Source: Elusimicrobiota bacterium
Lineage (GTDB): Bacteria > Elusimicrobiota > Elusimicrobia > UBA1565 > UBA9628
NCBI GenBank assembly: GCA_016209035.1
Contig: JACQWX010000029.1
Location: forward strand, 1,676 to 65,675
DNA length: 64,000 nucleotides
Direction: 5' to 3'
The notes below the pieces were generated by a model. The model was given only the letters and a program-made list of their open reading frames with translations, was not told the DNA's origin and did no database searches. Of this stretch, positions 11,447 through 62,959 are shown piece after piece (positions within the stretch are counted from its first letter, which is position 1; each line of letters starts with the position of its first letter). The translations under genes and the position numbers were made by a program.

Positions 11447-12268
11447 ATGACGCGAACCTGCGTTGTCCTGTCGTCTTTTATCCTGCTGGCTTCGGTCCCG
11501 ACCAGGGCGCTTGAGCTCTCCCTGGAGGAGAACCGGGCGCAGCGCGGCTCCGTCGGCTACGTCGACATGGGCAGGGTCTTCAAGCTCAACCCCGAGACCT
11601 TCCGGGCCAAGGAGTCCTTCGAGGACGCCGTCCGCCAGGCCGAGGAGGGCGTCAACATCCGCAAGGCCGAGGTCATGCGCCTGCGCAGCGAGCTCGCCGC
11701 GCTCAAGGCGGAACGCGAAGTGCTGGCCAAGGCGGCGGCCGAAGCGGCGGCCGCGCAGGCCCGATTGGAGGCCGCGGCGCAGGCCGCCGACGCCCTTCCC
11801 GAAGGCGACCGCGACGCTCGGCCTCCGGCCTCGACCGCGGCGCAGGCGGCCATCGCCTCGACCCAGGTGCCTGGCTCCACCTTCACCGCGCCCGCGCCGA
11901 CTCTCCCCGCCGCCTCGGTCCCGGCAGCAGCGGCGGGGGTTCCGGAACCGCCGCCGCCCCCCTCCCCGAAGACCCCGTCGCCTCAGGAGACCGCGCTGGC
12001 GGACGTGGACGCCAAGATCGAGAAGAAAGCGGCGGAGTTGACGCAGAAGGAGTCGGAGTTCAAGAACCTCCAGGCGATGGCGGAAAAGAACCTCCTGGAC
12101 CTCGAGAGCCGCAAGACGGAGATCCTCCTGGGCAAGATCCACAAGGCCATCATGGACGTCGCCCGCAAGGAGGGCGTCAGCGTTGTGGTGGACAAGAACA
12201 GCATCCTCTACGGCCACGAGGCCGTGGATCTCACGGAGAAGGTCCTCCAGGCCCTGAGGGGCGGATGA
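11447..12268 (+). CDS. OmpH/Skp-family periplasmic chaperone with Ala/Pro-rich low-complexity insert
   Basis: It has a signal peptide and coiled-coil Ala/Glu-rich segments. The conserved Skp C-terminus reads LGKIHKAIMDVARKEGVSVVVDKNSILYG, and the gene sits immediately upstream of lpxD as in the classic skp-lpxD-fabZ-lpxA arrangement. Confidence 0.65.
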   Translation: MTRTCVVLSSFILLASVPTRALELSLEENRAQRGSVGYVDMGRVFKLNPETFRAKESFEDAVRQAEEGVNIRKAEVMRLRSELAALKAEREVLAKAAAEAAAAQARLEAAAQAADALPEGDRDARPPASTAAQAAIASTQVPGSTFTAPAPTLPAASVPAAAAGVPEPPPPPSPKTPSPQETALADVDAKIEKKAAELTQKESEFKNLQAMAEKNLLDLESRKTEILLGKIHKAIMDVARKEGVSVVVDKNSILYGHEAVDLTEKVLQALRGG

Positions 12269-18200: not shown

Positions 18201-20921
18201 TTCTTCGACTCGGTGCGGTTCTCAGTGGCCAATGCGGGCTCCGAGTCCCTGAGCATGGGCCCAGCGTCCCTGGAGTTCGTCGATCAGCCCATGATCCAGA
18301 CCGTGCCTGCGTCTGCGGTCTCCCTGGCCTCTGGGGAGTCCGCCCTCCTGACCGGCATCGTTGCCACGCCTCCCAGCCTGCCCGGTTCCGTAAGCCTCAA
18401 GGCCCGGCTTCCCGTCCCTTCGGAGCCTGGGACCTCGCTCGCGCTGGTCCGCTCCTTCACCCTGGAATCCTCCGACCCGGTGGAGCCGGTCGTGGAGATA
18501 CTGCCAGGCGTGATGACTCCCGGGGCCATGGCCGACGTCCAGGTCAGGCTCCACAACCGCGGCTCTGCCGCGATGGACTTGCTGACAGGGCAGATGATCG
18601 GGGCCTCGCCTGCGCCGGTGGACTCCCTGGTGGCAAGGCTCAAGACCCCTGAAGGCACGCTTCTGGCGCAGGGAGGCGTTCTACAGACCGGAGGCGGAGC
18701 TTCCGGTCTGTACTTGGACGGGAAGCAGTGGTATTTCGTCTCGATCCCTGCCGGCTCGAACTTCCTGTTCGAGCCCATCGAGCTTTTGGTCCCGGATGCG
18801 GCAGGCTCGTCGGCCAAGGTGTCGGTCGTGGTCGCAACGCCCTCCTACAGCCTGGCCTTCAACCCTGTCCCAGGGACACGGAGGTTCGAGGGACTCTCTT
18901 CGCAGGTGCTGGTGAGCAGCATCGCCTACACGGCGACGGTCTCGGTGGAACGGGCCTATTACGACCAGGGGTCCTCAATGACCTTCACCGGCACGGCGAA
19001 GGACTCCCTGGGAGGACTCTTGCCCTACTCCACGGTGACGGTGCACGTGCTGAACCGTGGCTACGACCGTCACCTGACCACGGTGACGGACGAAGCCGGA
19101 GCCTACGCGGCGGTGTTCTACCCTCTTCCAAACGAAGCCGGCATCTACCAGGTAAGCGCCACGCATCCCGACATCGTAACGCACCTGATGCAGGCGAGCT
19201 TTACCATCGTGGACCTTGAGTACCAGTACCGGGAGTTCACCGCGAGCATAGCGCAGAACTCCCAGATGTTGTTTACGGTGAGGCTGACGAATACCGGCGA
19301 GGCTGCGTTGACCGGTCTCGCCGGAGAGGTGGTGCTCTCGACATCGGCTCCGGGAGTCCGGTTGTCGCTAGATCCCGCGAGCCTGCCCGGCATGCTCTCA
19401 GCAGGAGCGCAGGTAGAGCTTAGGCTGACGGCCTCGGCAGAACCCACAGCGCAGGTAGGCGCGGCCTATCTTTTCCTTGTCGTCAGCGAGTCCCACGGCT
19501 TCACGAGGACGCTTCCGGTCAAGGTCAAGGTAGGCGCTTCGCTGGCAATACCCACAGCCACGCCCCAGATGTTCGAGCTTGGCATGGCAGCGGGCGAGTC
19601 CAGGACGCAGGCGGTCACGCTCAAGAACGAAGGGTTTGCCCCGTGGCTTCAGGTCAGGCTCTCCCAGCCGACGCTGGGGTGGGTTCACATAGACGGTCTG
19701 ACCGACCTGGGGGACATCCAGCCTGGAGGCAACTCCAACTTCAGTCTGAGGATCGAGCCTCCGTCCAGCCTGCCCAATCAATCCTACGCGCAGAACCCGC
19801 TCTTGGAGGTCTATTCGCTCAACGCCGCGACCGTGTCCATCAATGCGGGGATCGTGGTGACCTCTTCCAAGCAGGGCGGCCTCGTCTTCCAAGTCATCAA
19901 TGCGGACGAGCAGAGGGACGCCAACGACAATGGCGTGCCTATCGCGGGCGCGGTAGCCACCCTGACGAGCCTTGACATCGCGGGGCTCGCCTTCAAGATC
20001 ACCGGGGACGCCAACGGGATCATTGAGTTCCAGAACGTTCCCAGCGGCAAGTACGCCTGGACCGTGGAGGCCCCGGGGTTCCTGGCCGAGTCGGGGACCA
20101 CGGACATCCAGCCCGGGCTGACCAAGACTATCGAATCGGTTATGGCCACGGCCACGGTAACCTACGAATGGACGGTGACGCCGACCACAATCACGGATGT
20201 CTACCAGATCACGCTTCAACAGACCTTTAAGACTGATGTCCCGGCCCCAGTAGTGGTGCTTGACCCACCCATCATCCATTTGAACGTTGAATCACACGTC
20301 GAGGTTTCCGGTCAGTTCACGGTGTCGAACAAGGGAATCGTTTCGGCGTTCGACGTGACGCTGCAACCCAGCAGCCCGGACGGGGAGGTCAAGATCGATC
20401 TGCCGTTCACCAAGATTCCCGAGCTAAGGCCAGGGGAGACGGTTGTTGTTCCTTACAAAATCAGCCACGGACAGTTGGCGGGGCCGGCCTGTCACAATCA
20501 TCCCGCTGCCATCGGGGCAGTGTTTGTCCGTCCATGCGCGGCCGGTATCATCATAAACGGGACGTGCGTGCCGATAAAGATTACTGTTGCCAGTGAGTTG
20601 AAGTCCTGTGCCGTCGGCGACGGCAGTGTGGGCGGCGCACGACCTCCCACCGGAGGCGGCGGCATCTGGGAGGCCACGAAACAGTGGATCAGCGCGATGT
20701 TCGGGACGCAGGTAGTCAAGAAACAATGTAGACCTCGCTGCAAACTCAAACGGGAAAGGAAATTTAAAGAATCAGACTTGCCTGATTCACGGTGGGAAAC
20801 GGAGTGCATGTATGAATGTGACGATGGGTACCTTTTTTATGATTACCTGATTGGGACAGCAGATGTCGCGTATGACTGTGAATTCTACGCCCCTGATCCC
20901 CGGGGCCCTCCGCCACGGTGA
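12270..20921 (+). CDS. Giant (2883 aa) secreted cell-surface multi-domain protein: repeated FN3-FN3-Ig-like modules, CARDB-like and carboxypeptidase-regulatory-like domains, Cys-rich C-terminal tail
   Basis: It has a signal peptide MSLSLSGLLAVLLSGVPTASAS. At least three repeated modules carry FN3 signatures (SWxxP, YYYRV), and Ig-like units begin DAVPP/DPIPP. A CarbopepD_reg-like segment (TVHVLNRGYDRHLTTVTDEAGAYAAVF) follows. The final ~150 aa contain 12 Cys and the coding composition drops to low GC. Confidence 0.8.
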   Translation: MSLSLSGLLAVLLSGVPTASASTGAISGTIIYDAGFTPGSTITVVVSTDMFRGEMISATVTSAGGTTVAYSLELPAPESYVIGAFVGDNLDSLSPSTPLGFYQDFTLVPLSAGETVSGKDFSLALDGQSPTSGFTSPAAGSTITALSTLEGTATDNLGAEAYPDMAALDLTNGKWWSPWDRVWIATTTTPLYYGVGADAAGKPSTFTWTMDISTGSGGWRFGGLAGYLANNHRYRLYASFGDYVGNRQAPPATAEFTWDGPTGDLLPPAPEYVDGSALGTSSIAWRWGAVTDATGYSVYESSEGPLIAAVATNTYTSAGFSTNTGHMICVSASNEYGESPRKCLPYFLFTLAAVPGEPRALVRSSTTITWEWDPETNPAATFYELALSTDDFASGAGALLGFNFSTGTATTGLEPDTTYYARVRAANGNFILTGFSGSGSTKTLIAAPLPPVNLSAVFDRVDAAVNLSWEPAPTGSPAVYFDISRSASPTGSFVLISTGLTATSYIDRPPASAAYYYRVYSVGEFGAPSTLPATANALFDVIPPQAVTGLGLAGLRPAQNEVVLSWTAPSDDYSGVSRYLVLSSTMADFSAGVATQTWDSSAVPGSTVTATVWVSTTQSQYFAVIAQDAVGNESSRSTSILVDAVPPVITSFNLAEGEVVSRPRLLNVQASDNQGFFDSLFYKIDGVVVSTISYGQPHAYFWDTRDYAQDGPHSVEVIVRDNFGNEAALSRSVTVVYSTPAAPVFYAPQEGFTTRVATVSVQILAEPYTAVRVLADSVEIATAALGQNAWLFTTVSLPAEGDIALAAVTFEPRGESSTSTPVHVAYFSEPPLPPESLFAAVDLQARSITLSWQPAASGTLATAFNVYRGTQPAGAELLRSGVTTFYYLDQPLLSATYYYRISATHGAGLEGQPSSPVSAFFDIYPPQPVSDLRAGDYRPSQAQLDLIWTAPQDDFSGLSRYVLYDSTTGVFDAGSSSTVIQAISQPGETDGYTVSVATTQTRYFRLKAGDRAGNLSTFSNTLFFDPIPPQIVSVDLAEGPVVSRPRSVTVQATDNVGLAQVLFRVDGATVASMASPPYSFIWDTRLHSDGMHVLRGVAYDVAGNTGIAEIPVTLNYMPPAAPTILSPATGYATTVATVSLSGIAEAGTTVQLLINGGLASSVWVPLQGGIGGFQFTDVPLASEGVNTLNVRSSDIKGASANSSAIQVFLYLAAPPPPQGVTAEAQPGGTVRLDWVVPSTGTVAFYRVYRSTDETVFLSTEPLAAGLRIADNVVAVPFLDSPSTEAAYFYAVTANDPVGNESYLSDIVSAVSDRGAPSASFQLESATGPLGPGQHPLLLTVSENLVAIPIVTFTPLNGSPLPVNLAPLSPLVWRGTVTVTSAMQEGAANLGFQGSDYVGNVGTTIIAGGTLVLDTKGPLGAVSLGKASPVGPGPLALTLTLNEPAVSTPSLSFTPYGGSPLPIALAQSVGSTDNKSWSGTILVSSGTGDGQATFAFSGQDLVGNAGDSLSGGTTFFVVDAVPPGAPRYLTPVPGKAGVVQLSWTVPLGERPSRYTVYRDGERIADAVPVNSDGSGTFSDLPAEGSHEYAVSALDAAANEGSLSDPVSATSDATAPPAPANLTAVLYGFGQIQITWEPGAGESLASYRLYRTTHSISTLAGLTPRPAASPYLDSPTEDATYHYVVTSLDSAGNESPPSSEVSLLFDKAAPRIAVSGVAEGGFYNGPVLPSWTVADGNLDPSSARGALDGNPFVSGSMVSAEGGHVLLVTASDTEGHASTATVSFTLDLTTPAINISGVQEGGVYRGTVAAVITATDLHLLSTSYLLTNLTLNTTVPYSSGEPMARNGSYVLRAQAQDRAGNDRTSEVSFTLEVGPIAPLNLAVEAAKSAGARLTWQKPEPGVIAYRVYRDDARISASLYQETSFQDSGFIAGTERVYEVSAVDYSGIEGPKARVTVPAVSLELAGYGTARDGKQYLTRGFFDSVRFSVANAGSESLSMGPASLEFVDQPMIQTVPASAVSLASGESALLTGIVATPPSLPGSVSLKARLPVPSEPGTSLALVRSFTLESSDPVEPVVEILPGVMTPGAMADVQVRLHNRGSAAMDLLTGQMIGASPAPVDSLVARLKTPEGTLLAQGGVLQTGGGASGLYLDGKQWYFVSIPAGSNFLFEPIELLVPDAAGSSAKVSVVVATPSYSLAFNPVPGTRRFEGLSSQVLVSSIAYTATVSVERAYYDQGSSMTFTGTAKDSLGGLLPYSTVTVHVLNRGYDRHLTTVTDEAGAYAAVFYPLPNEAGIYQVSATHPDIVTHLMQASFTIVDLEYQYREFTASIAQNSQMLFTVRLTNTGEAALTGLAGEVVLSTSAPGVRLSLDPASLPGMLSAGAQVELRLTASAEPTAQVGAAYLFLVVSESHGFTRTLPVKVKVGASLAIPTATPQMFELGMAAGESRTQAVTLKNEGFAPWLQVRLSQPTLGWVHIDGLTDLGDIQPGGNSNFSLRIEPPSSLPNQSYAQNPLLEVYSLNAATVSINAGIVVTSSKQGGLVFQVINADEQRDANDNGVPIAGAVATLTSLDIAGLAFKITGDANGIIEFQNVPSGKYAWTVEAPGFLAESGTTDIQPGLTKTIESVMATATVTYEWTVTPTTITDVYQITLQQTFKTDVPAPVVVLDPPIIHLNVESHVEVSGQFTVSNKGIVSAFDVTLQPSSPDGEVKIDLPFTKIPELRPGETVVVPYKISHGQLAGPACHNHPAAIGAVFVRPCAAGIIINGTCVPIKITVASELKSCAVGDGSVGGARPPTGGGGIWEATKQWISAMFGTQVVKKQCRPRCKLKRERKFKESDLPDSRWETECMYECDDGYLFYDYLIGTADVAYDCEFYAPDPRGPPPR

Positions 20922-22162: not shown

Positions 22163-22987
22163 ATGTCTGTGAACATGCTGAATGCGCAATCGAGAAGTCA
22201 AGAGTGCAGCTCCGATCCAATGAATTTCATTCCCGCGTGGAAGGGATGCCGAGTCCACGGCTGGAGTTGCAGATGGGTACTGGTGTCACTGCTAGTCATG
22301 ATTCATTCGGTGCAACTTCCGGCGACAGAACCCATCGCCAAGATAACCCCACCCCTCGCGCGCGAGATTCAGAAGAACGAGCGAAGCATCGTCTTTGTCG
22401 ACGTTCGGTCACCCGCAGAATATGTTAAAGGGCATATCAAGGGGGCCCTTAATGTTCCTGTTGCAGACCTCCGCACTAGCACCATTCCGCAAGCCGATTT
22501 GGTGGTGGTCTATTGCCCCGACGAGGGATGTGCTCGTAGCGACCGTGCTGCATATGAATTGCTCGGCCTAGGCATCGCCAATGTGCGTGTGCTTGAGGGT
22601 GGCTTGGCCGGATGGCAACAGTACCGGTACCCTGTGGAACCTGCGCCTGCCGCAGCCCGCGTTGTCAGGATGTTGCCCGCGGAATTGCGTCGCTTGCTTG
22701 TGTCCTCTAAAATGATCGTGATTGACACCCGGCGCCATGATGAGTTCGTCGCCGGGCATGTTCCAGGGGCGGTGAATCTGCCGTTGGAAGGTCTGCCCGA
22801 GAGCTTGGCGTCAATGGAAAACAAAGGGCCCTGCGTGGTCTATGACCGGCTGCAGGAGCGCGCGCGCCAAGCAGCCATGATCTTGGCGGAGTCGGGGCGC
22901 GAAGCCCGCGAGCTTGTCGGCGGCATCGGGGCGTGGTCCAAGAAGGGCTATCCGATGGCGGTGGGGAATCAGTCCGAGGTGAAATGA
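22163..22987 (+). CDS. Tandem rhodanese-domain (sulfurtransferase-like) protein
   Basis: There are two rhodanese modules. The first has VFVDVRSPAEYVKGHIKGALNVP ... VVYCPDEGCARSD, with the CPDEGC active-site loop. The second has VIDTRRHDEFVAGHVPGAVNLP. Start is uncertain (an alternative is 22222). The stop overlaps the giant-2 ATG. Confidence 0.65.
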   Translation: MSVNMLNAQSRSQECSSDPMNFIPAWKGCRVHGWSCRWVLVSLLVMIHSVQLPATEPIAKITPPLAREIQKNERSIVFVDVRSPAEYVKGHIKGALNVPVADLRTSTIPQADLVVVYCPDEGCARSDRAAYELLGLGIANVRVLEGGLAGWQQYRYPVEPAPAAARVVRMLPAELRRLLVSSKMIVIDTRRHDEFVAGHVPGAVNLPLEGLPESLASMENKGPCVVYDRLQERARQAAMILAESGREARELVGGIGAWSKKGYPMAVGNQSEVK

Positions 22988-34900: not shown

Positions 34901-35181
34901 ATCCCTCGAGGGGGACAAATCCTACAATACGGGTGCAGGTGGGCATGGCGGACTCGGTTCAGGTGCAGATTTACGACGCAGCCGGGAGCATGGTACATAA
35001 CGACTTCTTCGGGGTTCCAAGGGTCCTTGACGACAGCAACGGCAAGGGCGACCAGTACACTTACGACTATGTCTGGAACGTGGGCCGCATGGGCTCCGGA
35101 GTCTACATCTACGTCATCACCGCGACCAAGGCCGGTGAGAAGCCCATCCGGAAGACCGGAAAAGCAGGAGTGATCCGCTGA
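22984..35181 (+). CDS. Giant (4065 aa) T9SS-type secreted cargo: N-terminal novel domain, FN3s, two NHL six-bladed beta-propellers, ~17-19 tandem Ig-like (HYR/Big-like) repeats, DUF3494 ice-binding-like beta-helix, C-terminal Por/T9SS sorting domain
   Basis: The signal peptide is MRICMPGGWLRLWRALILASAVIPSWQG. NHL blades include DQEGNVYAADSGNARIQKFNPAGGFL and GNVLVADRSLNVIHLFSSTGALV. FN3 units include LSWTAPGEDGGTGQAASYELRYS. Periodic D-x-T-P/A-P-x-T ... SGV ... YRSxDxVGNxE units recur every ~300 nt. The beta-helix segment reads TLSTGVYVVEGLEINGGASLRTQGPVSLLVRGPVKVEGGGAL. The CTD reads YAFPNPSRGTNPTIRVQV...VQIYDAAGSMV...SGVYIYVITATKAG. Confidence 0.85.
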   Translation: MRICMPGGWLRLWRALILASAVIPSWQGLLSAQDETVCAVVKLEIKQEATLEREAFDARLLLNNNSTTQPLQNLFVNFTITDIDGNPADILFFVKISSLSNTNAIDGTGVVQSSSTADIHWLIIPSTGAGGSNPLGLRYAIRANISYTANGIPQLLSTFDAFITVKPQPSTKLEYVLPYEVFSDEPLTVEIEPIEPFPLGVRVTNVGYGTARNFQIDSAQPRIVENKQGLAVDFKLLGTVVAGNTIPDTLLVPFGDVAPGGVGQASWIMSTTLSGRFIEFTSTFTHAAELGGALTSLIQSVTTYTLLKDVLVDLPGRDRVPDFLVNMGQPRGEGMQALLDSGGTIAAEYILESDQPTPIQVTEVPAAVSGTLAGTNASLTLSFAQPVGSNVWAHSSVPVVLPAGVSLVFVTRSDGKALNPANGWISKHFRKSDRSVLRRLNVIDLTSSATAYVFNFSAAGLEQAPGAVADLAAATGQRGGELALSWTAPGEDGQTGAILGGRYLIQHEVDQSASFAPAAALVVFATSTAPGRIERYVLTGAIGNTTNYLRLWTQDTGGAMSGISNGATAYALPNPPAQSAFVAVSSEALGVSWVIGNNSLPIEYQVVVNTDLAEPFVSSSPFFGSFQNSFTFAGLAPNTAYTLFGFARNPETGARSEMAVLGSTTTLATPPVAQPFADLSTNSLTAAWAIGSNPAGTEYWVELSTLPERAPVIAQSGWIRAGSFTFSGLASATTYYARAKARNLGLVETGFTDLGAAWTSSADNMPPRTGLVVGLPRFGAAPVFVTDKTTFSFTVADDLETVGDGAGLGAAYTMVSVDTAPFFNFAAAFSLVEPGMHTIRYYSVDYLNNVETERQAAVVVDAIAPATSLEVLGSSRVVGGMIELFEGSNITLTASDPEPVGVGSGVGRTIFLIDTAPENCIGGAPAWPPDPSFPQGSCRNPVFTAPFALSKGTHTVLYYSVDHVGNTEVPGSIALSVSRPPGDITETGRVDFRFSFGGQGSAPGQFNFMSDVSVDQEGNVYAADSGNARIQKFNPAGGFLLAWGSYGSGPGQFSGLWAINVCAGFAEQRVVAVDNPNRRVQIFTSTGGLLGQIGPGIGGSTFTLSYPVGVACDGAGHVYIGDQGLRLILKTDQTGRLLGSWSIPEGGIGRIAVDMSGMVYVSVGRAVFKFTADGTLLQRFGDPNSTLGNLSRSQGMAFDIFNNLYVGDSCTGGQGVQVFAPSGTFLAKFGEPGTAPGQFLSYVVQGVGIDRWTGRIFATDTSENRVEVFDVAVPTTDIKAPLTKLLVLGPSGATGDGNLIVTTTTLLSFESVDSAHPGIAPSGVAFTEYRLDETGPFQRFTTPFALEFVVAGFPYRGIEYRSTDHAGNVEPARLVHVYLDFTPPRSALFFDENQVTQMFGPESIALPGDLAFPETEFTIVAHDPGNPFSAGVGTVTAALDGMPVELERKPETSPCPEPLHGWDCVRLDVPGQERPLAEGLHLLTWQSGDKTGNFDIPRTVSFNVVRRPPNVVNNPAHKFLTALQSPEPDGFFGLTDLAVDFFGNVYVANLGPYKATIWRFSSDGALLQQFPIDAQGMDVGVSPVRLAINPTLDRKLLVTAGYHVGFYTTEGSVQYFPSTFGGFSFVNASDAAFDSAGNIYVADSAQGKIFKFSPSLEFIMAFGERGGGQFVTGPGRLASDRNGHIFATDTNPGRILKFSSAGEFIGSISGPMAEPDGLSTDIYGNVLVADRSLNVIHLFSSTGALVGQIGSPGSGQGQLASPRGLDIHLQRGRVYVADRANQRVQIFAPDLLPDTVMNLHATATMEGEVLLSWTAPGEDGGTGQAASYELRYSTMPITNISEYLEASTVTTPSPGPAGSTETLRIAGLAGNTSFYFALRAFDSAGNPSALSNTAVVRTPFIVRSAAMINGNPELLMIASNIEPAVVLIDTTSSAGGFVLAAASSQTLELASNLYDVGPPGAEFSPLASLTLRYSTKTLADLGLAEAQLGIYRFHPPADLVKVPGQTLDMQGRFLRVPIGRVTSIFGIFGPIPDRTPPLTSLRVIGGGRFVDTEARLLVSSDAALGFDAFDPVVRGTASGVAFTEFRVDAAAATAPYSVFVSTFGLAEGGHLIEFRSQDHAGNLEVTRSSQVFVDAVAPATSLLVNGTAVGAAEAVIISTDILSFASQDAGSGVSETLFKIDEMPEQVYASTFTLAAGTHTVTFRSRDNVGNVESLKTALVSSLAPDTTAPSLAFVPVDGSTLATSRPTIAALYSDEGRGIDLTSVRLALDGLDVTSQAVVTTSSGSFVPAASLAQGSHTINASVTDMAGNLAAAAATFMLDVTPPSVVIESPNGGEVYLAGASTIQVRFGVTDNVDPAPGFYASLVQLEDRGSPRGNRPGFVPATTGQTFDPLDLDDGLWRLKVSAADFVMNSTAHYSGAFEVIHDTLAPRTLMTISAPQAPGGPGGAEFVSSRTMINLSSVDDLVLAGDGQGLGVAWQALSVDGIFRTTFTNLSPASRQVFSSSFTLATEPDGIHALAFFGQDVVGHVEALGSKAVALDDTPPLTGLVLSTPSFNGFVSSRTLLTLVAEDPVAGGVASGVEFTSYRIGGGDFVRMPLSLSLAGPDGAYVLEFQSRDRVENLEVLHSTTVLLDQTPPETTLSLEGPVSGDFVTSQATVALVSHDPGTLPSGAALTRYKINDGAFVIGSPLSQFGLSGSDGNYRIQYQSEDHVANLEVLLERVLKLDNTPPKTEAVIQDTVFFGVDGSTYASHAAGLGLIAVDAGSEVERTEAAVDGEPFEPYSAPLTLAEGVHVVRYRSVDKLGNVETERSLSLKVDGTPPTTTAQVGEPSFMDAQGKHYVTPATAVSFSALDPGLAFSTVPGSGLSLIEVAMDTGPFSAFTRSLTFTEGRHTVFFRAVDRVGNVEVIRTLSLRSDATPPITAMKPSGEFFTAGARDFAPGHFTYSLPAEDPAAKDVASGVAWTRFGLDHGPLAAFTSAFSLTEGIRLVSFQSQDNVENLELLKNSTVYVDATAPATALAIGGPSFDPGEGRPVFVALKTMLGLPSIDPEVLGAASGVREARFRLDSGAFQIFAARFTVPLPEGPHQIEWFGTDNVGNAEVLKSTAIALDDTAPLTSLAVLAGRQARAPEPESFFASSDTALAFVSTDPAAGWPASGLGLTEFQDNAGPFEAFSAAFSLTEGVHRLGYRSRDRVDNLEVLASTTVLVDATPPVSILAIGTPQAKVVPGQGHGPMGLTIVSSIAPLVVISTDPVSREVNSGLEQVHVSTGFGFSTSTAAFRLDGVDGIKTVSFYAFDRVGNTEAFQTGEVGLDNTAPLTSLAYVGGRQFRTQDKVFASTTTAYRFDAGDPVAGGIAAGVDFTEFSIDSGPLSRFAFDFTLAEGVRTIAWRSQDRVANLETLVSTAVHADATPPISSTTLTGPRFLSAGQAGTVGGPLFIASSTLVGLRSEDPMSNGVASGLNRIMAALDGGTTSVFWLDSPIVAEGTHTLVYQGFDNVENAETSRVFKVSVDSTPPVTDISFLGVASFLPGLPEQARVFIASGTRVALAAQDPVSRNTASGVLLTRYRIGQGLGGHPGPWTATQGPFLLPGEGLHLVEWQSQDKVENLEQAKVMLIAVDQTPPETSVSFGEPGFRGFGFDLIASDTPITLTSQDPLSSGVASGAAEITYRADGGPLQVYVSSFTLPQGMHTLEYGAVDRAQNAETRKTVGVAVADFVLGAVAGVDGISGSGTSDITGLVQSNGNVDLSGNVAVVGDVTAYSVTLKGQATVSGNIIQGASPLVAESIDLALIEQLAQASSSNILIPESFLKNGALSISGQKTLTLSTGVYVVEGLEINGGASLRTQGPVSLLVRGPVKVEGGGALNADGRASQFVVFSNGSQGAFFGGGARVLGLFYAPHAALLIAGNSQIGGHLFGKTVALSGTSNIVQSGETLPQLVASSGGKDKKLSLARTAMAGLGPDPAFRYHDHYAFPNPSRGTNPTIRVQVGMADSVQVQIYDAAGSMVHNDFFGVPRVLDDSNGKGDQYTYDYVWNVGRMGSGVYIYVITATKAGEKPIRKTGKAGVIR
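29080..34110 (+). repeat. Intragenic tandem array of ~17-19 diverged ~300-nt (100-aa) Ig-like repeat units inside the giant-2 gene
   Basis: Unit boundaries are marked by DxTPPxT/DxTAPxT at ~29080, 29390, 29660, 29950, 30260, 30600, 30880, 31160, 31430, 31730, 32010, 32310, 32610, 32920, 33200, 33510 and 33830. Each unit shares SGV.., Y..DGG.F and (Y)RS.D.VGN.E motifs. Further isolated units occur at ~25560 and ~27120. Confidence 0.7.
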
Positions 35182-36197
35182 TGAAAGTCATCCATCCGTC
35201 GCGCCCCCTGCCGCCCACGCCTTTCCTGACGGCGCAGGGGACCTGGCCCTCCAATCTCCTGGAAGGCCAGGGCCTCCGGCCTGGACCGCGCCTTGCGCTC
35301 GTGGCCGTGGCGCTCGTGGTCGCGTGCTTGCCCGCCCGGGCCGGCGAGACCGCCCAGTTCTTGAAGATAGGGGTGGGAGCCCGTGCAGTAGGAATGGGAG
35401 GCGCCTACACCGCGGCAGGTGATGACTTGAACTCCATGGCCTGGAACCCCGGGGGCATGGCGAGCCTGACCAAGCGCGAAGCGGGCGCCATGTACGCCAA
35501 CTTGGTGGCTGAGACGCACTACAGCTTCATGGGCTACGGCCAGCCGACGAAGTACGGCACTTTCGGGGCTGGGATCATGTACCTGGGCCAAGGCTCGCTG
35601 GATGGCAGGGATTCCCAGGGCAGGGCCAATGGTGGATTCACGGCCTCGGACATGGCATTGGGCGTATCGTACGCCAAGACGGTGCTCCCGAGGCTGGGCT
35701 TAGGCGTCAACGTCAAGTTAGTCAGGACGAACGTCGGCTCGGACACGGGCTATTCCGTTGCTTTCGACCTGGGCTCAAGGTACGACCTGGGCAGGATGGG
35801 GCCAGGGAGCTTGGCGGCTGGGTTGGCGGTGTTGAACCTTGGGCCCGGCATCAGGCTGCACGAGCAAAGCTCGGACTTGCCGTTGGTGTTGGCGACCGGA
35901 CTTGGGTACAATCTTCCTTTCGGCTTGAACTTCGGGCTGGACTTCAGGAACAGGCCCTATGCCGGAAGCTCGGAGGTGAGCCTTGGGACTGAGCTTGCGG
36001 TGGTTCCCCAGTTGGCCTTGAGGATGGGGTATGCTTCGACTCATGGGCTCATCTCAGGGGCGTACAAGACGAGCGACTTGATGGGGCTGGCTGCCGGGTT
36101 CGGGGTGAAGGCCTACGGGATGAGCCTGGATTACTCCATGACGCCCTTTGGGGGGCTGGGGAACAGCCACAGGATTAGTCTAGGGAGCAGATTTTAG
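35181..36197 (+). CDS. PorV/PorQ-family-like outer-membrane beta-barrel protein (putative T9SS cargo shuttle); ATG shares a nucleotide with giant-2 stop
   Basis: It has a hydrophobic signal-like segment and the N-terminal motif [31 protein letters not shown], typical of the PorV/UPF0164-type barrel family. The rest is an alternating Gly/aromatic beta-strand pattern with a C-terminal Phe. The family assignment is made from memory of the motif and has not been searched. Confidence 0.55.
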
Positions 36198-36208
36198 AGG
36201 ACATTCTC

Positions 36209-37348
36209 ATGCGCAAGACCCTAGCCGAGATCGCCGAGTTGGTCGCGGGAACGCTCGAGGGAGACGGCTCCTTCGTAGTCACGGGCGCCGCCGGCCTCCA
36301 GGAGGCCGGCCCCGAGGACATCTCCTTCCTGGGCAACCCGAAATACGCGGCTTCGGCCCAGGCATCCAACGCGGGGTGCCTGCTCCTGCCCGCGCCCGGC
36401 GTTTCTGGCGCGGGCGTGCCGCCTCGACCCGAACGGGAAAGCGGCCTGCCCGCGCCCGGCGTCTGCCCGCCAGGGCGTGGCGCGGGGGCTCCGGGCAAGG
36501 CCAAGAACCGCATCTTCGTCGAGGACCCCCAGTACGCCTTCTCCCAGGTCCTCTGGCTCATCCATGACGAGCGGCCCAAGCCCCCGCCCGTCATCGACTC
36601 CAAGGCCTGCGTCCACTACCAGGCGAGGCTCGGCCCCGGAGTGAGCGTCGGCCCCTTCGCCGTGGTCGACCGGGGGTCCCTGGTCGCCGAGGGCGCCGTC
36701 ATCGGCGCCCAGTGCTATGTCGGAGAGAACGTCCGCATCGGCCGCTATTGCCTCCTCCACCCCCGGGTGGTCATCCGCGAGGACTGCGTCATCGGCGACC
36801 GGGTCATCGTCCAGCCCGGGGCCGTCATAGGGGGGGACGGGTACGGCTTCTCAACGGACAAGAAGACCGGCCGGCACCGCAAGATCCCCCAGATCGGCAA
36901 CGTCGTGGTGGGAGACGACGTGGAGATCGGCGCCAACGCCGCCATCGACCGCGCCACCACCGGCTCGACCGTGATCGGCCCCGGGACCAAGATCGACAAC
37001 CTGGTCCAGCTCGGGCACAACGTGAAGACCGGCAAGGACTGCCTCATCGTGGCCCAGACCGGGGTCTCGGGCTCCACCACCCTGGGGGAGCGCGTCATCC
37101 TGGCGGGACAGGCCGGCCTGGTCGGCCACATCAAGATCGGCGACGGGGCGATCGTGACGGCCAAGACCGGGGTCATGCACGACATCCCCAAGGGCGAGGT
37201 CCACTTCGGCATCCCCTCGCGCCCGCACCGGGAGGCCATGAAGCTCCAGGCGCTCTTCGGCAGGCTCCCCGACATCCACGACGCCGTGAAGGCGATCAAG
37301 AAGAAGCTCGGGCTGCACGAGGACCACGCCAAGGTCCGGGAGGGCTGA
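36209..37348 (+). CDS. lpxD: UDP-3-O-acylglucosamine N-acyltransferase LpxD (with ~38-aa in-frame low-complexity insertion)
   Basis: The N-terminal domain reads ...[12 protein letters not shown]. The left-handed beta-helix hexapeptide repeats ([44 protein letters not shown]) and the catalytic LGHNV are present. It follows skp. Confidence 0.9.
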
Positions 37349-40409: not shown

Positions 40410-41437
40410 TCAAGATCAAGTTCGCGGTGATCGGCGCCGGCAAGATCGGCAGCCACCACGCGCGCATCCTGAGCAAGCTCCCCGAGGTGGACCTCGTCGG
40501 CGTGTGCGACGTCAACCTCTGGAGGGCCCAGCTCGCGGCCTGGAAAACCGGCTCCGTCGCGGTCCGCGACTACCGGGACCTCCTCGGCAAGGTCGACGCC
40601 GCGGTGATCGCGGTGCCCACTCCGCTGCACTTCGAGGTCGGGGCCGCCATCCTCGGAGCCGGCAGCCACTGCCTCATCGAGAAGCCATTGGCCTCCTCCC
40701 TCGACGAGGCCAAGGCGCTCCTGGCGCTCTCCGAGTCCAAGCATGCGGTCCTGCAGGTCGGCCACGTGGAGCGGTTCAACCCGGCGGTGCTCGAGGCCAT
40801 CCCCTACGTCCGCAGTCCGCGCTTCATCACGGTTGAGCGCCTGGGCCCTTACGACCCGCGCATGAGCCACATCGGCGTAGTGCTCGACCTCATGATCCAC
40901 GACCTCGACATCCTGCTGACCCTCGTCGGCTCGGAGGTGGAGGCCATCGAGGCCGTCGGCGCCCACCTTATCTCGCCCCACGAGGACATCGCCAACGTGC
41001 GGGTGCGCTTCCGCGGCGGCTGCATCGCGGACCTCACCGCCAGCCGGATCACGTTCGAGAAGTGCCGGAAACTCCGCATCTTCCAGAAGGACTCCTACAT
41101 CTCCCTGGACTACGCCAACACGACGCTCAAGATCTACCGGCGCAAGGTGCCCGTGATCAAGAGCCTCAGGGACGTCGAGGTCATCCGCCCCAAGCTCACG
41201 CAGGCCGAGCCCCTGAGGAACGAGCTCGTCCACTTCATCGACTGCGTCCGCCACAGCCGCAAGCCCTGGCCGAGCGGCGAGCACGGAGTGGAGGCCTTGA
41301 AGCTGGCGCTCCAGATCTCCGACGAGCTCGAGCGCTACGAGGTCTCCGGCCACCGGGCGGTGCGGCCGCTCGTCCCCAGCTGGATGCAGGACCTCAAGGC
41401 CATCGCCAAGGACGTGGGGAAGGATCTGCTGCCATAG
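40406..41437 (+). CDS. Gfo/Idh/MocA-family NAD(P)-dependent oxidoreductase (candidate GnnA-like UDP-GlcNAc 3-dehydrogenase)
   Basis: The Rossmann N-terminus reads IKFAVIGAGKIGSHHARIL. EKPLA and the C-terminal alpha/beta domain are present. A TTG start overlaps the lpxI stop. It sits between lpxI and lpxB. Confidence 0.75.
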   Translation: MIKIKFAVIGAGKIGSHHARILSKLPEVDLVGVCDVNLWRAQLAAWKTGSVAVRDYRDLLGKVDAAVIAVPTPLHFEVGAAILGAGSHCLIEKPLASSLDEAKALLALSESKHAVLQVGHVERFNPAVLEAIPYVRSPRFITVERLGPYDPRMSHIGVVLDLMIHDLDILLTLVGSEVEAIEAVGAHLISPHEDIANVRVRFRGGCIADLTASRITFEKCRKLRIFQKDSYISLDYANTTLKIYRRKVPVIKSLRDVEVIRPKLTQAEPLRNELVHFIDCVRHSRKPWPSGEHGVEALKLALQISDELERYEVSGHRAVRPLVPSWMQDLKAIAKDVGKDLLP

Positions 41438-41439
41438 GC

Positions 41440-42615
41440 ATGGCGCCCGCGGCGGCCAGCCCCCCCGATGCTCGCCCCCCCGCGGGGGGGGCTCGCGACT
41501 CCTGGTGCATCGTCGTGGCCGGCGATCCCTCCGGCGACCTGCACGGCTCCCATCTCATCCGGGAGCTCAGGGCGGAGGAGCCGGGCCTTAAGACAGCCGC
41601 CGTGGGCGGCCCCTGCATGAAGCGCGCCGCCGACGAGTTCCTCGAAGACCTCTCCTCCCGCGGCTTGACCGGCTTCTGGGAGCCCCTCAAGTCCCTCGGT
41701 TTCTTCGCGAAGCTCGCCTTGCGCCTCAAGCGCTTCATGCTGCGGCGCTCTCCCCAGGCGGTCGTCTGCATCGACTACTACGGCTTCAACAGCCTCGTGC
41801 TGCGGATCGCCCGGGGGCTCGGCATCCCGTCGTACTACTACATAAGCCCCCAGGTCTGGGCGACGCGGCCCGGCCGCGTCGCGGTCTTGAAGAGGCTCAT
41901 CCGCAAGATGCTGGTCATCTTCCCCTTCGAGGAGCGGCTCTACCTCAAGGCGGGAGTCCCCTGCCTCTTCGTGGGCCACCCCCTCATCGACGTCATCCCT
42001 GACGCGCGGCCCCACCACGGCGTCGGCTCCACGCTGCGGCTCGGACTCCTGCCCGGCAGCCGCCCCGCCGAGGTGGCGCGGCACTTGCCCCTGTTCCTCG
42101 ACGCCGCCCGGCGCATCCGCCGGCACTTCCCCGACATGGAGGCCCGCGTCTTCGCCCCGGAATCCCTCGCGGACGAGCACTACGCCGCGGCGGCCGCCGC
42201 GGCGGTCCCCGTCATCCGCGAGTCCGACTACGCCGAGCGCAGCAGGCTCGACTTCGCAATCAGCTCGTCGGGCACCGCGACCCTGGAGAACGCGCTGCTG
42301 GGCATCCCCATGGTCGTCGTCTACAAGCTCTCCTGGCCGACCTACCTCATCGCCCGGGCCCTCATCCGGGTCCGGCACATCGCCATGGTCAACATCCTGG
42401 CCGGGAGGCGCCTGGTCCCCGAGCTCGTCCAATACGACGCGACGGCCGAGAGCACGGCCAAGAAGGCCCTGAGCCTGCTGGAGAACCCCAAGCGCTACGC
42501 CGCCCTGCGGCGCGAGCTCACGGCCCTGCGCCCCATGCTGGGCAAGCCCGGCACGGCACGCCGAGCCGCGCGGGAGATCATCAACGAGATGGTGCGGGCG
42601 AGGCGCGTCCCGTGA
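41440..42615 (+). CDS. lpxB: Lipid-A-disaccharide synthase LpxB
   Basis: Starts at MAPAAAS...WCIVVAGDPSGDLHGSHLIRELR. Conserved blocks include YISPQVWATRPGR, AGVPCLFVGHPL and SGTATLENALLGIPMVVVYK. The listed ORF's upstream 126 codons lack homology. Confidence 0.85.
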   Translation: MAPAAASPPDARPPAGGARDSWCIVVAGDPSGDLHGSHLIRELRAEEPGLKTAAVGGPCMKRAADEFLEDLSSRGLTGFWEPLKSLGFFAKLALRLKRFMLRRSPQAVVCIDYYGFNSLVLRIARGLGIPSYYYISPQVWATRPGRVAVLKRLIRKMLVIFPFEERLYLKAGVPCLFVGHPLIDVIPDARPHHGVGSTLRLGLLPGSRPAEVARHLPLFLDAARRIRRHFPDMEARVFAPESLADEHYAAAAAAAVPVIRESDYAERSRLDFAISSSGTATLENALLGIPMVVVYKLSWPTYLIARALIRVRHIAMVNILAGRRLVPELVQYDATAESTAKKALSLLENPKRYAALRRELTALRPMLGKPGTARRAAREIINEMVRARRVP

Positions 42616-55361: not shown

Positions 55362-58300
55362 CCAAGAAGACGGCCGCCGACAACGGCAGACGCGACGAGC
55401 TCGTCGAACTGCTGCGGACCCGCATCCTGGTGCTCGACGGCGCCATGGGCACCGAGATCCAGGCCAGGAACCCCGCGGCCGCGGATTTCGGCGGCCCCGA
55501 GTTCGAGGGCTGCACCGACCATCTGTCCCTCACCAAGAAGGACGTCATCGCTTCCATCCACGACGCCTACCTCCAGGCCGGCGCGGACATCATCGAGACC
55601 AACTCCTTCGGCGCGGTCCCCTGGGTGCTCGAGGAATACGGGCTCGCGGCCAAGGCCTCCGAGATCAACCGGGCGGCGGTGGAACTGGCGCTCAAAGCCG
55701 CCAAGAAGCACTCGACCCCCAAGAAACCCCGGTTCGTGGCGGGCGCCATGGGGCCGGGCACCAAATCCATCTCGGTGACGGGCGGCATCTCCTACGACGA
55801 GGCGCGCTGCGGCGCGGCCGGCTGGGCGTTCGACCTCGTGGACGCCGGGTGCGACATCCTCCTCATCGAGACCCAGCAGGACACCCTGAACCTCAAGGCG
55901 TCCCTGGCGGGCGTCGACGACTCCTTCCAGCGGCTCGGCCGCAGCGTCCCGGTCATGGTGTCCGTCTCCATCGAGAACTCGGGCAAGATGCTCGGGGGCC
56001 AGTCCATCGACGCCCTCTACGCCTCCCTCCAGCACCGGGACCTCCTCGCCCTGGGGATGAACTGCGCCACGGGCGCCGACTTCATGACGGACCATTTGCG
56101 CACGCTCTCCGCCTTGAGCCGCTTCCCCACGCTGTGCTACCCCAACGCGGGCCTGCCAGACGAGCGCGGCAAGTACTCCGAGACCCCCGCCCTGCTGGCC
56201 AAATCCATCGAGCGGTTCTGCTCCCAGGGTTGGGTCAACCTGGTGGGCGGCTGTTGCGGCACGACCCCGGCCCACATCAGGCTGGTCGCGGCCATGGCCG
56301 CGGGCGTCCCTCCCCGCCGGCCCAGCCGCAAGAGGGTGTCCCTGGTCTCGGGCCAGGAGGCCCTCGTGATCGAGGGCCGCAACCGGCCCGTCCTGGTCGG
56401 GGAGCGCGCCAACGTCCTGGGCTCCAAGGCGTTCAAGGAGCTCGTCGTCAAAGGCGCCTTCGAGGAGGCGGCGGAAACCGGGCGTCGCCAGGTCAAGTCC
56501 GGCGCGCAGATCCTCGATGTCTGCCTCTCCAACCCGGAGCGCGACGAGATTCTCGACATGACCGCGTTCCTGGGTCACCTCCTCAAGAAGGTCCGGCTGC
56601 CCATCATGATCGACTCCACCGACCCCGCGGTCGTGGAGGCGGCGCTCAAGCTCTGCCCCGGCAAGTGCATCATCAACTCGGTCAACCTCGAAGACGGGGC
56701 GGGCGAGCCCGGCCAGGCGGCCGAGCTCGCCCGCCGGCACGGCGCGGCCTTGGTCGTGGGCGCCATCGACGAGGACAAGGCGGCCGGCATGGCCGTCACG
56801 CGCGAGCGCAAGGTCGCCATATGCCAGCGGGCGCACGACATCCTCGTGAAGAAGCACGGCATGGCCCCCGAGGACCTCTACTTCGACGGCCTGGTCTTCC
56901 CCGCCGCCTCCGGGGACAAGGGATATTATGGCTGCGCGATGGAAACGATCGAAGGAATCAGGCTGATCAAGAAGGCGCTGCCAAGGTCCAAGACCATCCT
57001 GGGGATCTCGAACGTTTCTTTCGGCCTGCCGGGGGCAGGCCGAGAAGTGCTCAACGCCGTCTTCCTCTATCACTGCGTGCAGGCGGGACTCGACCTAGCC
57101 ATCGTGAACACCGAGAAACTCGCGCGCTACTCCACCCTGGGCGAGGCTGACCGCAAGCAAGCCTTGGCCCTCCTGTCCTGGAAGGGCCCCGGCGACCCCG
57201 CGCATCCCGCGGGCTTCGACCCGCTCTCCGAGTTCGCGGCGCGGTTCAAGGCAGTCCGGGCGGTTGCCGGCGGCGCCCGGCCGGAGGAGGGCCCCTCCGG
57301 CGCCCCCCTCACGCCCGAGGAACGCCTCGCGCGCCGCGTCGTCGAAGGCTCGAAGGAGGGGCTCCGCGAAACCATCACGGAGCTGCTCTCGACCCTCAGG
57401 CCCCTCGAGCTCGTCAATGGCCCGCTCATGAAGGGCATGGCAGAGGTCGGCCGGCGCTTCGCGGCCAACGAGCTCATCGTGGCCGAGGTCCTCCAGTCCG
57501 CCGAGGTCATGAAGGCGGCCGTCGAGCTCCTCGAGCCCCATATGGACCGCTCCGAGTCCGCCAGCCGCGGGAAGATCGTGCTGGCCACGGTCAAAGGCGA
57601 CGTGCACGAGATCGGCAAGAACCTGGTGCACATCATCCTCAAGAACAACGGCTTCGAGGTCGTGGATCTCGGCATCAAAGTCCCTCCCGAATCCCTCGTG
57701 GAGGCCGTCAAGAAGCACCGGCCGGACGCGGTCGGCCTTTCGGGCCTGCTGGTCAAGTCCGCCGAGCAGATGGCGACGACGGCCGAAGACCTGGCGCACG
57801 CCGGCATCGGCGTCCCCCTGCTCATCGGGGGCGCCGCGCTCTCTGCGAAGTTCGCCTCCACGAAGATCGCGCCCCGCTACAAGGGCCCGGTCCTTTACGC
57901 GCGGGACGCCATGAAGGGGCTCGACCTGATGAACGCGCTCTCGGACCCGGCCAAGCGCGAGAAGCTCCTTGCCGCGGCCCGCACCCCGGGCTCCGCTGAC
58001 CGAGCCCCGGCGGCCAGCGCCATCCCCGAAGGGCCGCCGGGACGCTCGGGCTCCGCCCTCGACCGCGCCCCGGCGGCCGACATCCCGGTCCCGCCGGACC
58101 TCAACGTCCACCTGGCGTCGGACGTCTCCATCGAACAGGTCTTCCCCTACATCAACCCGGTGATGCTCTACGGCAAGCACCTGGGCCTCAAGAGCGTGGA
58201 GAAGTCGTTCGCCGGGGGCGAGCCCAAGGCCGCGGAACTCCGGGCCAAGGTCGAAGCCGTGCGGGCCGAGATCGCGGCCAAGGGCCTCATCAAGCCCCGC

Positions 58301-61549: not shown

Positions 61550-62959
61550 ATGAGATCCCCCGCCGAGATTCTCATCGTCCTCCTCTGCGCGCCCGCGCTT
61601 TCATGGGCGTCGGCGGACGCGCCGTTCGACGGCGGCGGCAAGCCTTTCGAGATCGATCTCGGCAGGATGACGACCGCCTCCCGCTCTCTTGCGGCCGAGG
61701 TGGACGACCGGCTCTGGGTGACCGCGCTCGCGCCCGACAAGCGCAGCCGCACGCTCGCCTCCGAAGCGGGGTTCGCCATCGAGGAGATCCGCGGCGGCGC
61801 CATCATGGGCGTGGCGCTCCCCGAGACCGTGGACGCCCTCAAAGCCGCGGGCATCGAGGTCCTCGCGGCCGTCCCGCTCCTCAAGCAGTTTAACGCCAAG
61901 GACTTCCCCAAGGAGGACGGCGCCTACCACAACTACGCGGAGGCGGCTGCGCTCCTCAACGAGCTCGCGGCTGCCGCCCCCAAGCTCGCATCCGCCTTCT
62001 CGATCGGCAAGAGCCTGCTCGGCCGGGACATCCCCGCCTTGCGCCTCAATTCCAGCGCCAGGGGACCTGCGCCCAGCTCCAAGCCGGGCATCGTGTTCCT
62101 GGGCACCCACCATGCCCGGGAGCACCTCTCGACCGAGATCCCCCTTCTCCTGGCCAAGCACCTGGTCGACAACCGCGACAAGCCCGACATCGCGGCCCTG
62201 CTCGAGTCCCGCGACATCTTCGTCATCCCGCTGGTCAACCCCGACGGCTCGGAGTACGACATCGAGGGCGACCGCTACCACATGCACCGCAAGAACATGC
62301 GCGCCAACTCCGACAAGTCCGTGGGCGTGGACTTGAACCGCAACTACGGCTTCCACTGGTGCGAGAGCGGCGCCTCCTCCAACCCCAGGTCCGACACCTA
62401 CTGCGGGACCGCGGCCTTCTCCGAGCCCGAGACCGCGGCCGTCAAGGCCTTCCTCGAGGCCCGGACCAACGTCAAGATACTGCTCACCTACCACACCTTC
62501 AGCGAGCTCATCCTTTACCCGTGGGGCCACACGGAAAGCCCCATCCCCGACGCGCCGGCCCTGGCCGCCTACAAGAGCATGGCAGACGCCATGGCCAAGA
62601 TGAACGGCTACACGCCCCAGCAGTCGAGCGACCTCTACGTCGCCTCGGGAGACACGACCGATTGGGCCTGGGCCGTCCGCGGGATATTCTCCTTCACCTT
62701 CGAGCTTTCCCCCAAGTCCCTCTGGGACGGCGGCTTCTACCCGGGCGTCCCGGCCATCGCCACGACCTTCGCGGCCAACCTGCGGCCCGCCCTCTACCTC
62801 ATCGGCCTCGCCGACGACCCCCTGCGCGCCCCGGCCGCCGACGCCATTTCCGAGAGGCGGCCGGGACGATCGGGCTCCGCCCTCGACCGCGCCCCGAGCG
62901 TTTCCGGCGACGGGGTCGCGGGCGAGGACCGGCCGGTCGCCGCCTTCGGCAGCCGCTGA
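61550..62959 (+). CDS. M14-family zinc carboxypeptidase, secreted, with ~45-aa Pro/Ala-rich C-terminal extension
   Basis: It has a signal peptide. The zinc-binding block is FLGTHHAREHLSTE (HxxE). LVNPDGSEYD, NRNYGFHW and TYHTFSELILYPWG are M14 hallmarks. Confidence 0.8.
   Translation: MRSPAEILIVLLCAPALSWASADAPFDGGGKPFEIDLGRMTTASRSLAAEVDDRLWVTALAPDKRSRTLASEAGFAIEEIRGGAIMGVALPETVDALKAAGIEVLAAVPLLKQFNAKDFPKEDGAYHNYAEAAALLNELAAAAPKLASAFSIGKSLLGRDIPALRLNSSARGPAPSSKPGIVFLGTHHAREHLSTEIPLLLAKHLVDNRDKPDIAALLESRDIFVIPLVNPDGSEYDIEGDRYHMHRKNMRANSDKSVGVDLNRNYGFHWCESGASSNPRSDTYCGTAAFSEPETAAVKAFLEARTNVKILLTYHTFSELILYPWGHTESPIPDAPALAAYKSMADAMAKMNGYTPQQSSDLYVASGDTTDWAWAVRGIFSFTFELSPKSLWDGGFYPGVPAIATTFAANLRPALYLIGLADDPLRAPAADAISERRPGRSGSALDRAPSVSGDGVAGEDRPVAAFGSR

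Follow-up and report, generated by a model that had tools for sequence, protein, structure and literature searches.

A lineage-specific in-frame insert in lpxD of an Elusimicrobiota bacterium, probably one copy of a small interspersed repeat of groundwater relatives

Introduction

Repeats that colonise genes in frame are textbook matter for Rickettsia, but have rarely been documented elsewhere. The Rickettsia palindromic elements (RPEs) are short interspersed hairpin-forming repeats of ~150 bp, which are situated in frame inside unrelated housekeeping genes and make up several families per genome (PMC10969869). Here we describe an insert in the lpxD gene, coding for the UDP-3-O-acylglucosamine N-acyltransferase LpxD, on a stretch of 64,000 nt from an Elusimicrobiota bacterium (GenBank assembly GCA_016209035.1, contig JACQWX010000029.1, positions 1,676 to 65,675 of the forward strand; the whole analysed stretch is called the window and all positions refer to it). 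We consider this insert, with a probability of roughly 80%, to be a single copy of an interspersed repeat, small (~60–78 nt) and non-coding, designated family A, which is spreading within a groundwater clade of Elusimicrobia.

Other short dispersed repeats of bacteria offer themselves for comparison. Repetitive extragenic palindromic (REP) sequences and REPINs are short GC-rich dispersed hairpins, non-autonomous, plausibly recognised as single-strand hairpins and mobilised by the REP-associated tyrosine transposase RAYT, an IS200/IS605-like Y1 enzyme; REPs are by definition extragenic and usually arranged as inverted pairs. MITEs, short for miniature inverted-repeat transposable elements, on the other hand, have as their defining features inverted repeats at the termini and target-site duplications that stem from a parent insertion sequence (IS). 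Bacterial MITEs such as Correia, ERIC and BOX are small non-autonomous repeats which occasionally form in-frame fusions with host open reading frames (ORFs) (PMC10969869).

The insert in lpxD

The lpxD gene extends from 36209 to 37348 on the forward strand as an unbroken ORF of 379 aa. Its product matches the Pfam families LpxD N-domain (PF04613) and Hexapep (PF00132) and the LpxD chains of the PDB (phmmer, E 1e-61 to 1e-45), and is 100% identical to P0001, a protein of an Elusimicrobia metagenome-assembled genome (MAG) at NCBI. With the N-terminal uridine-binding domain, the hexapeptide left-handed beta-helix, the C-terminal helix and homology to solved structures, all features of the family are present, and its invariant residues are retained despite the insert.

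The element itself occupies 36385–36462 (78 nt, 26 codons, forward strand) and is bounded by a direct repeat 'a' (CCTGCCCGCGCCCGGCGT), the two copies of which, at 36385–36402 and 36445–36462, are identical at 18/18 positions with a spacing of 60 nt. A preliminary description of this locus had recognised 17 nt of the repeat and, in addition, two hairpins with stems of 9 and 8 bp, both of which are present. The first, hairpin 1, pairs GCCCGCGCC (36388–36396), located within the 5' repeat, with the central arm a', GGCGCGGGC (36407–36415); the other reported stem pairs CCCGCGCC (36449–36456) with GGCGCGGG (36479–36486). The extended central arm GGCGCGGGC(GTGCCGC) at 36407–36422 pairs with the second repeat as well, over 16 nt at 88%, and a' has two alternative partners, the 5' repeat in hairpin 1 or the 3' repeat in a long hairpin which encloses hairpin 2. 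The latter (36418–36445) consists of the outer stem GCCGC/GCGGC (36418–36422/36441–36445) and a variable interior with a small inner stem, CCC/GGG. The order of the design is thus the 18-nt a, a 4-nt loop, a', a GC-clamped second hairpin with variable interior, and again a.

Folding of the 131-nt region 36380–36510, a check proposed in the preliminary description, gave -84.7 kcal/mol and z = -3.2, equalled by 2/200 shuffles. No Rfam covariance model matched with an overlap to the element on either strand of 36200–36700 at E <= 10, and no intrinsic terminator, that is a GC hairpin followed by a T-run, was found in 36100–36800. A scan of the window for the same design (direct repeats of at least 11 nt, 45–90 nt apart, with a complement in between) retrieved three cases, in lpxD, in metH and in a giant ORF, compared to 0–1 in 20 block shuffles. 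The case in the giant ORF lies at 19030–19089 inside the ORF of 2883 aa; here 12 nt (CCACGGTGACGG) are repeated directly at a spacing of 48 nt with a complement in the centre, and repetition in the coding sequence may be all that this reflects.

In a 16-sequence alignment, the window protein alone possesses the extra segment, as 81 nt (27 codons) are missing from 15/15 Elusimicrobia LpxD orthologues, namely the closest relatives P0002, P0003 and P0004 (349–352 aa, 77–80% identical) and 12 more distant ones. Nucleotide alignment with the DNA of the three closest orthologues equally showed a clean 81-nt gap in 3/3. The insertion had been estimated before at ~115 nt or 38 residues; part of the peptide then quoted (..GAPGKAKN) belongs to the ancestral loop. 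The best fit to the orthologues is obtained after deletion of 77–81 nt from 36385/36386, whereby a deletion of 78 nt leaves a peptide of 18 residues versus 17 residues in the nearest relative. The remaining ~3 nt of extra length are accounted for by the adjoining stretch 36463–36490 (forward strand), made up of the junction and the remnant of the ancestral loop, which carries GGCGCGGG at 36479–36486 and a third, degenerate a-like motif, CTGCCCGCCAGGGCGT, probably left over from the original target. Since CTGCCCGC is present at 36386, 36446 and 36463, the boundaries of the element are ambiguous by a few bases and no single junction can be assigned. The empty site reads CTGCCCGCG in L003, which matches bases 2–10 of the repeat, and CTGCCGCCCG in L001, so that for lpxD related genomes are polymorphic for presence and absence. 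Because it is absent from all aligned orthologues, the insert appears to be lineage-specific and recent and not an old loop; a homologous insert in relatives, which according to the preliminary description would have pointed to such a loop, is carried by none of them.

The insert had initially been placed between the N-terminal domain and the beta-helix, but belongs within the uridine-binding domain at the N-terminus, because the Pfam LpxD N-domain match ends at residue 62, which corresponds to position 42 of the 70 in the profile, the alignment to Pseudomonas aeruginosa LpxD breaks at residues 67/92, and confident strands at 57–61 and 100–104, followed by a helix at 107–121, flank the insert in an AlphaFold2 model. 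Residues 62–99 are modelled as coil with a predicted local distance difference test (pLDDT) score below 50 for 67–93, and the insert is thus predicted to form an unstructured, low-confidence, Pro/Gly/Ala-rich loop. As all of the top 25 Foldseek hits of this globally poor model (predicted template-modelling score, pTM, 0.47; TM ~0.25 to crystal structures) are LpxD, the family is recognised; the placement of the loop is based on secondary structure and sequence alignment, the suggested structural check having indicated coil while the model is too poor for a three-dimensional placement relative to the active site. The insert-bearing loop is the least conserved and most variable part of the orthologue alignment. 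Because this loop varies in length and sequence among orthologues, LpxD with the insert most likely stays functional.

Family A copies in related genomes

Upon scanning for the exact 18-mer, with one genome per species, chance matches were obtained in many GC-rich phyla, but the matches listed also comprised at least four in JACRDT01, the assembly which encodes the closest LpxD, and at least one in the close relative JACRNU01. In these two assemblies the similarity continues over ~70 nt (69–76 profile positions, nhmmer E 1e-15 to 3e-19), while the other matches to the 18-mer, at least ~117 among those listed, cover ~20–30 nt, the 18-mer only, with E >= 0.03. One such non-extending match stems from another Elusimicrobia MAG, L015, and those in other taxa represent a built-in negative control. 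The nhmmer profile was built from the window copy and five sister-genome copies, and the E value of 2e-17 for the window copy is by construction. A seventh copy, L126, resides on a groundwater contig from Hainich, Germany (E 2e-13). A looser hairpin pattern gave six matches, of which L126 was the one true copy, four were terminator-like hairpins in unrelated genomes and one was another unrelated sequence. A strict DNA pattern of the 3' half had no match in JGI metagenome contigs or IMG/VR.

Family A thus comprises at least seven copies in four assemblies, six of them beyond the window. The copies in JACRDT01 and JACRNU01 share with the lpxD copy the sequence CCTGCCCGCGCCCGGCGT-TnnT-GGCGCGGGCGTGCCGCyTC-(variable)-GGnnAnCGGCCTGCCCG. 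At the 3' end of the other copies, the repeat a matches over no more than 8–15 nt. Along with the absence from 15/15 orthologues and the unbroken ORF, the six additional copies bear out the original proposal that a structured repetitive element has entered an essential gene in frame without disrupting it. The recurrence of the 17-mer in related genomes likewise removes the objection, raised in advance, that it might occur nowhere else.

All seven copies are intragenic, each in a different ORF, and the frame of the host is kept throughout. Forward relative to the gene are the copies in LpxD (window, 36385), in a FIST/guanylate-cyclase protein (L036), in a GT4 glycosyltransferase (L050, plus strand), in an M48-like membrane protein (L050, minus strand) and in a small secreted protein (L126), whereas those in SucD (L051) and in a HemN/W-like radical-SAM protein (L009, 3748–3840, minus strand) are reverse. 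The five forward copies translate as LPAPGVxGAGVP...SGLP, the two reverse copies in two different frames into unrelated peptides. Use of the LPAPGV frame in 5/7 copies has a binomial estimate of ~0.01 for any one of six frames in this tiny sample, and the bias probably reflects which translations are tolerated.

Host domains are recognisable to either side of the element in LpxD, SucD, the HemN/W-like protein and the GT4 glycosyltransferase. The Guanylate_cyc match ends just before the element and the Pfam match in GT4 stops at it as well, while in the radical-SAM protein the match is stretched across the element (186 residues over 159 profile positions); the M48-like ORF was outside the Pfam scan and the small secreted protein matched no Pfam family. 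Compared to E. coli SucD, the SucD with the element has exactly 20 extra residues, equivalent to a net gain of one 60-nt period, and its 3' 'repeat', with 12/18 matches, resembles host sequence. In loop 1 of the L009 copy, 15 nt of palindromic sequence, ACGCGAGCACTGCTC, are added, by which the hairpin is lengthened with the total length still a multiple of three.

Comparison with described repeats

By analogy, the closest known counterpart of family A would be the RPE. Shared with RPEs are hairpin repeats in unrelated housekeeping genes, an in-frame position with an added peptide, and the existence of more than one family. However, family A belongs to another phylum, is composed of ~78% G+C and, with 60–78 nt versus ~150 bp, has about half the length, so that it falls short of an RPE proper; moreover, it has direct-repeat ends with a central complement and no overall palindrome, and is found in both orientations and three frames. 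The comparison is one of features; a relationship in sequence is not expected.

Like REPs, family A comprises short GC-rich dispersed hairpins that are non-autonomous, but 7/7 copies are intragenic single units and none is extragenic. Among the 30 window ORFs scanned, none showed a RAYT-like/Y1 (HUH) domain, nor is a conserved 4–5-nt motif located directly 5' of the copies. With MITEs family A shares small size and fusion in frame with host ORFs; in contrast to MITEs its termini are direct and not inverted repeats, the complement of the 5' end being positioned in the middle of the element and not at the 3' end, and no variable target-site duplication is evident among the copies. To our knowledge, there is no parent IS for family A, and a search of the available literature retrieved no report of such repeats in Elusimicrobia.

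Alternative explanations

Several observations weigh against an interspersed repeat that spreads within the clade. No second family-A copy was detected in the 64-kb window, neither with the 17-mer at up to 3 mismatches nor with blastn-short or the nhmmer profile, and as the search of the host genome comprised this window, the multi-copy status is demonstrated in relatives only. Empty sites are known for lpxD alone, none having come to light for the sister-genome copies in the DNA analysed, and the lpxD insert is read from a MAG assembly. Six of the seven copies were found via exact-match 5' patterns, which makes the 5' conservation partly a selection effect. The 30 window ORFs scanned with Pfam contain no transposase or HUH-type domain, and neither terminal inverted repeats nor a clear target-site duplication were observed. 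Finally, the folding advantage of single copies over shuffles of matched GC content is only modest (z -0.4 to -2.3, with one copy at +0.1).

Comparison of the seven copies shows which parts are constrained. In hairpin 1, 8/9 pairs are identical in every copy, a' is identical in 6/7 copies, with one G:U change in the L009 copy, and in the outer stem of hairpin 2, 4/5 pairs are identical throughout, while one copy lacks pairing at the fifth. Variable are the loops and the interior of hairpin 2, where 2/3 pairs of the inner stem change on both sides. Of all cells, 96.8% are paired, and the covariation score of the inner stem is reached by 12/500 shuffles. Since neither a' nor hairpin 2 was part of the first search pattern, their conservation is not an artefact of selection. 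On the protein level, the first 12 residues of the encoded peptide are conserved, but the middles differ (PRPERES, PRSRLDS, LRSGLEN, LRSKRES, PPEPIGS). Because a' and hairpin 2 are kept while the peptide middle and the reverse copies differ, the constraint probably rests on the nucleic acid, or recent copying is reflected, and not on the peptide.

Such conservation of stems with variable loops across four assemblies could also indicate that the hairpins are maintained for a role in mRNA or DNA, for instance in translational pausing, as a site for an RNase or another protein, or as a recombination or uptake signal, a domestication that would be compatible with a mobile origin. The two-sided changes in hairpin 2, the z-score of the lpxD region and the alternative pairings of a', reminiscent of a switch, are in line with this. 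We nevertheless regard it as unlikely, as the element occurs in both orientations in genes so that the transcribed strand differs between copies, the Rfam match and a terminator-like tail are lacking in the lpxD regions searched, the z-scores of single copies are weak, and seven related sequences are too few for a claim of covariation.

A decidedly less probable interpretation sees in LPAPGVxGAGVP a linker or motif with a function of its own, on which selection would act at the protein level and which recombination would have spread among proteins. The predominance of one frame and the conserved N-terminal residues would fit, but two copies are reverse, in two other frames and with unrelated peptides, conserved are the nucleotide stems and not the peptide middle, and the segment is predicted to be disordered. 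Nor was a real relative of the 36-aa window peptide found among 1.84 billion representative proteins (HMMER, all-against-all), where the one hit was a spurious eukaryotic repeat protein. Six-frame concatenated and tandem LPAPGV profiles against 5.8 billion proteins gave nothing at E <= 10; as the source protein was not recovered either, this is probably due to the correction for low complexity or bias and to a swamped word index.

That the Pro/Gly-rich loop has grown locally, through replication slippage or a tandem duplication in lpxD itself that involved a 60-nt unit, we hold to be very improbable. Slippage is favoured by GC-rich hairpins, the direct repeats are identical and exactly 60 nt apart, a third degenerate a-like motif follows immediately, and the window holds no other copy. 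Yet six unrelated genes in other genomes contain the entire unit of 60–78 nt together with its non-repeated middle (GGCGCGGGCGTGCCGCyTC...GCGGCC), and there the copies, embedded in different intact ORFs, are no contamination by lpxD reads; moreover, no precursor of the middle part exists in the orthologues.

An artefact of metagenome assembly or binning, with the repeat wrongly joined into lpxD, for which the MAG origin without reads and the derivation of the sole identical protein record, P0001, from the same assembly might be quoted, is hardly credible, as both flanks are contiguous lpxD in frame, the insert length is a multiple of three, repeat-induced misassembly joins different loci and does not insert complete units, and similar in-frame copies are present in three other independent assemblies.

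Proposed origin and mobility

As an interspersed repeat, the lpxD copy would have arrived after the lineage separated from its sequenced relatives, at a target that already resembled the terminal repeat of the element (CTGCCCGC...). The insertion would have brought 26–27 codons without a stop codon, striking a loop of the N-terminal domain which is variable in length and sequence, where it would persist as a Pro/Gly/Ala-rich disordered loop. The pattern of copies suggests an element that moves now or did so until recently, and that persists only at sites which can accommodate it. All copies agree in the repeated end sequence (CCTGCCCG...), with one empty site, that of lpxD, for comparison; this sequence must therefore be part of the element or a strict target. 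We favour insertion beside short a-like sequences, or recombination with them, as the route, to which a transposase acting in trans with a specific target and short-homology template switching or copying between the element and an a-like site would fit equally.

More speculatively, and in our estimation rather doubtful in this specific form, family A and a second family of the window, family B, may be tiny elements adapted to coding sequence which copy themselves without a dedicated transposase. Their terminal direct repeat would pair with look-alike target sequences, by template switching or short-homology gene conversion, adding 20–21 stop-free codons per event (net 60 nt in sucD; 60 + 15 in the hemW-like gene), and the a/a'/a device with two mutually exclusive hairpins would promote the switch.

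Family B

Self-comparison of the window revealed three copies of family B, in metH (57998–58078), in the C-terminal tail of an M14 carboxypeptidase (62825–62903) and in the linker of ompH (11772–11857), which are 81–86% identical to each other. A fourth copy (L051, 3671–3739, minus strand) belongs to JACRNU01, where an ORF for a trypsin-like protease carries it in its C-terminal tail. As in family A, an 18–23-nt direct repeat is combined with a central complement able to pair with either copy, the position is in frame with a Pro/Ala/Gly-rich peptide, and the element is also found in a sister genome; between the repeat cores, one C makes the difference (CCGCGCCCGGCG vs CCGCGCCCCGGCG). In contrast to family A the period is 63 nt and not 60, and the section of the repeat to which a' is complementary is another one. 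The preliminary description had considered whether the lpxD insert belongs to the same class of phenomenon as the element in metH and the carboxypeptidase gene. While this stands with respect to the a/a'/a design and the in-frame location, membership in the same sequence family found no significant support (Smith–Waterman scores versus dinucleotide shuffles, z -0.65 to 2.5), the best matching piece being 28 nt at the carboxypeptidase tail. Judged from sequence, the two families would thus exemplify one class of phenomenon without belonging to one sequence family. For ompH, the linker is too variable among orthologues to call an insertion.

Directly after the copy in the carboxypeptidase gene, 62886–62925 reads CCGCGCCCCGAGCGTTTCCGGCGACGGG (APSVSGDGV), which shows weak similarity to the 5' portion of family A (APGVSGAGV; z = 2.5) and may be a hybrid or nested element.

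Significance

The presence of two in-frame repeat families in a free-living, GC-rich, uncultivated phylum suggests that the phenomenon is more widely spread. Such elements, appearing as odd low-complexity loops, are presumably missed in the annotation of MAGs and can confound homology-based domain calls, as Pfam matches break at the element. Conversely, the copies show where conserved enzymes, for example LpxD, SucD, MetH and radical-SAM proteins, have permissive surface loops, and are usable as strain-level presence/absence markers. Direct-repeat ends, a central complement and self-like target sites do not fit the models for MITEs and REPs and could reflect a different mode of spreading.

Neighbourhood of lpxD

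According to the ORF list and Pfam, lpxD is the first gene of the cluster lpxD-lpxC-fabZ-lpxA-lpxI-(GFO-type oxidoreductase)-lpxB. In three sister genomes ompH is located directly 5' of lpxD, while in the window ~24 kb (12270–36197) separate the two genes. This region contains ORFs of 2883 aa and 4082 aa, an ORF with a rhodanese domain (22163–22987) and a weakly PorV-like beta-barrel ORF (35181–36197), and has the appearance of a large block of genes for giant surface proteins, inserted in a lineage-specific manner. At the other end of the cluster, the ORF with LpxB (41062–42615) has 517 aa, but the Pfam LpxB match starts only at residue 149; either the true start is situated further downstream or an N-terminal extension overlaps the gene of the GFO-type oxidoreductase. 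Within lpxD, 5' of the insert, two 10-nt arms in perfect inverted repetition, 1 nt apart (GCCGGCCTCC/GGAGGCCGGC, 36290–36318), overlap a 15-nt tandem repeat; as they are largely kept in the DNA of the orthologues, they probably represent merely conserved codons.

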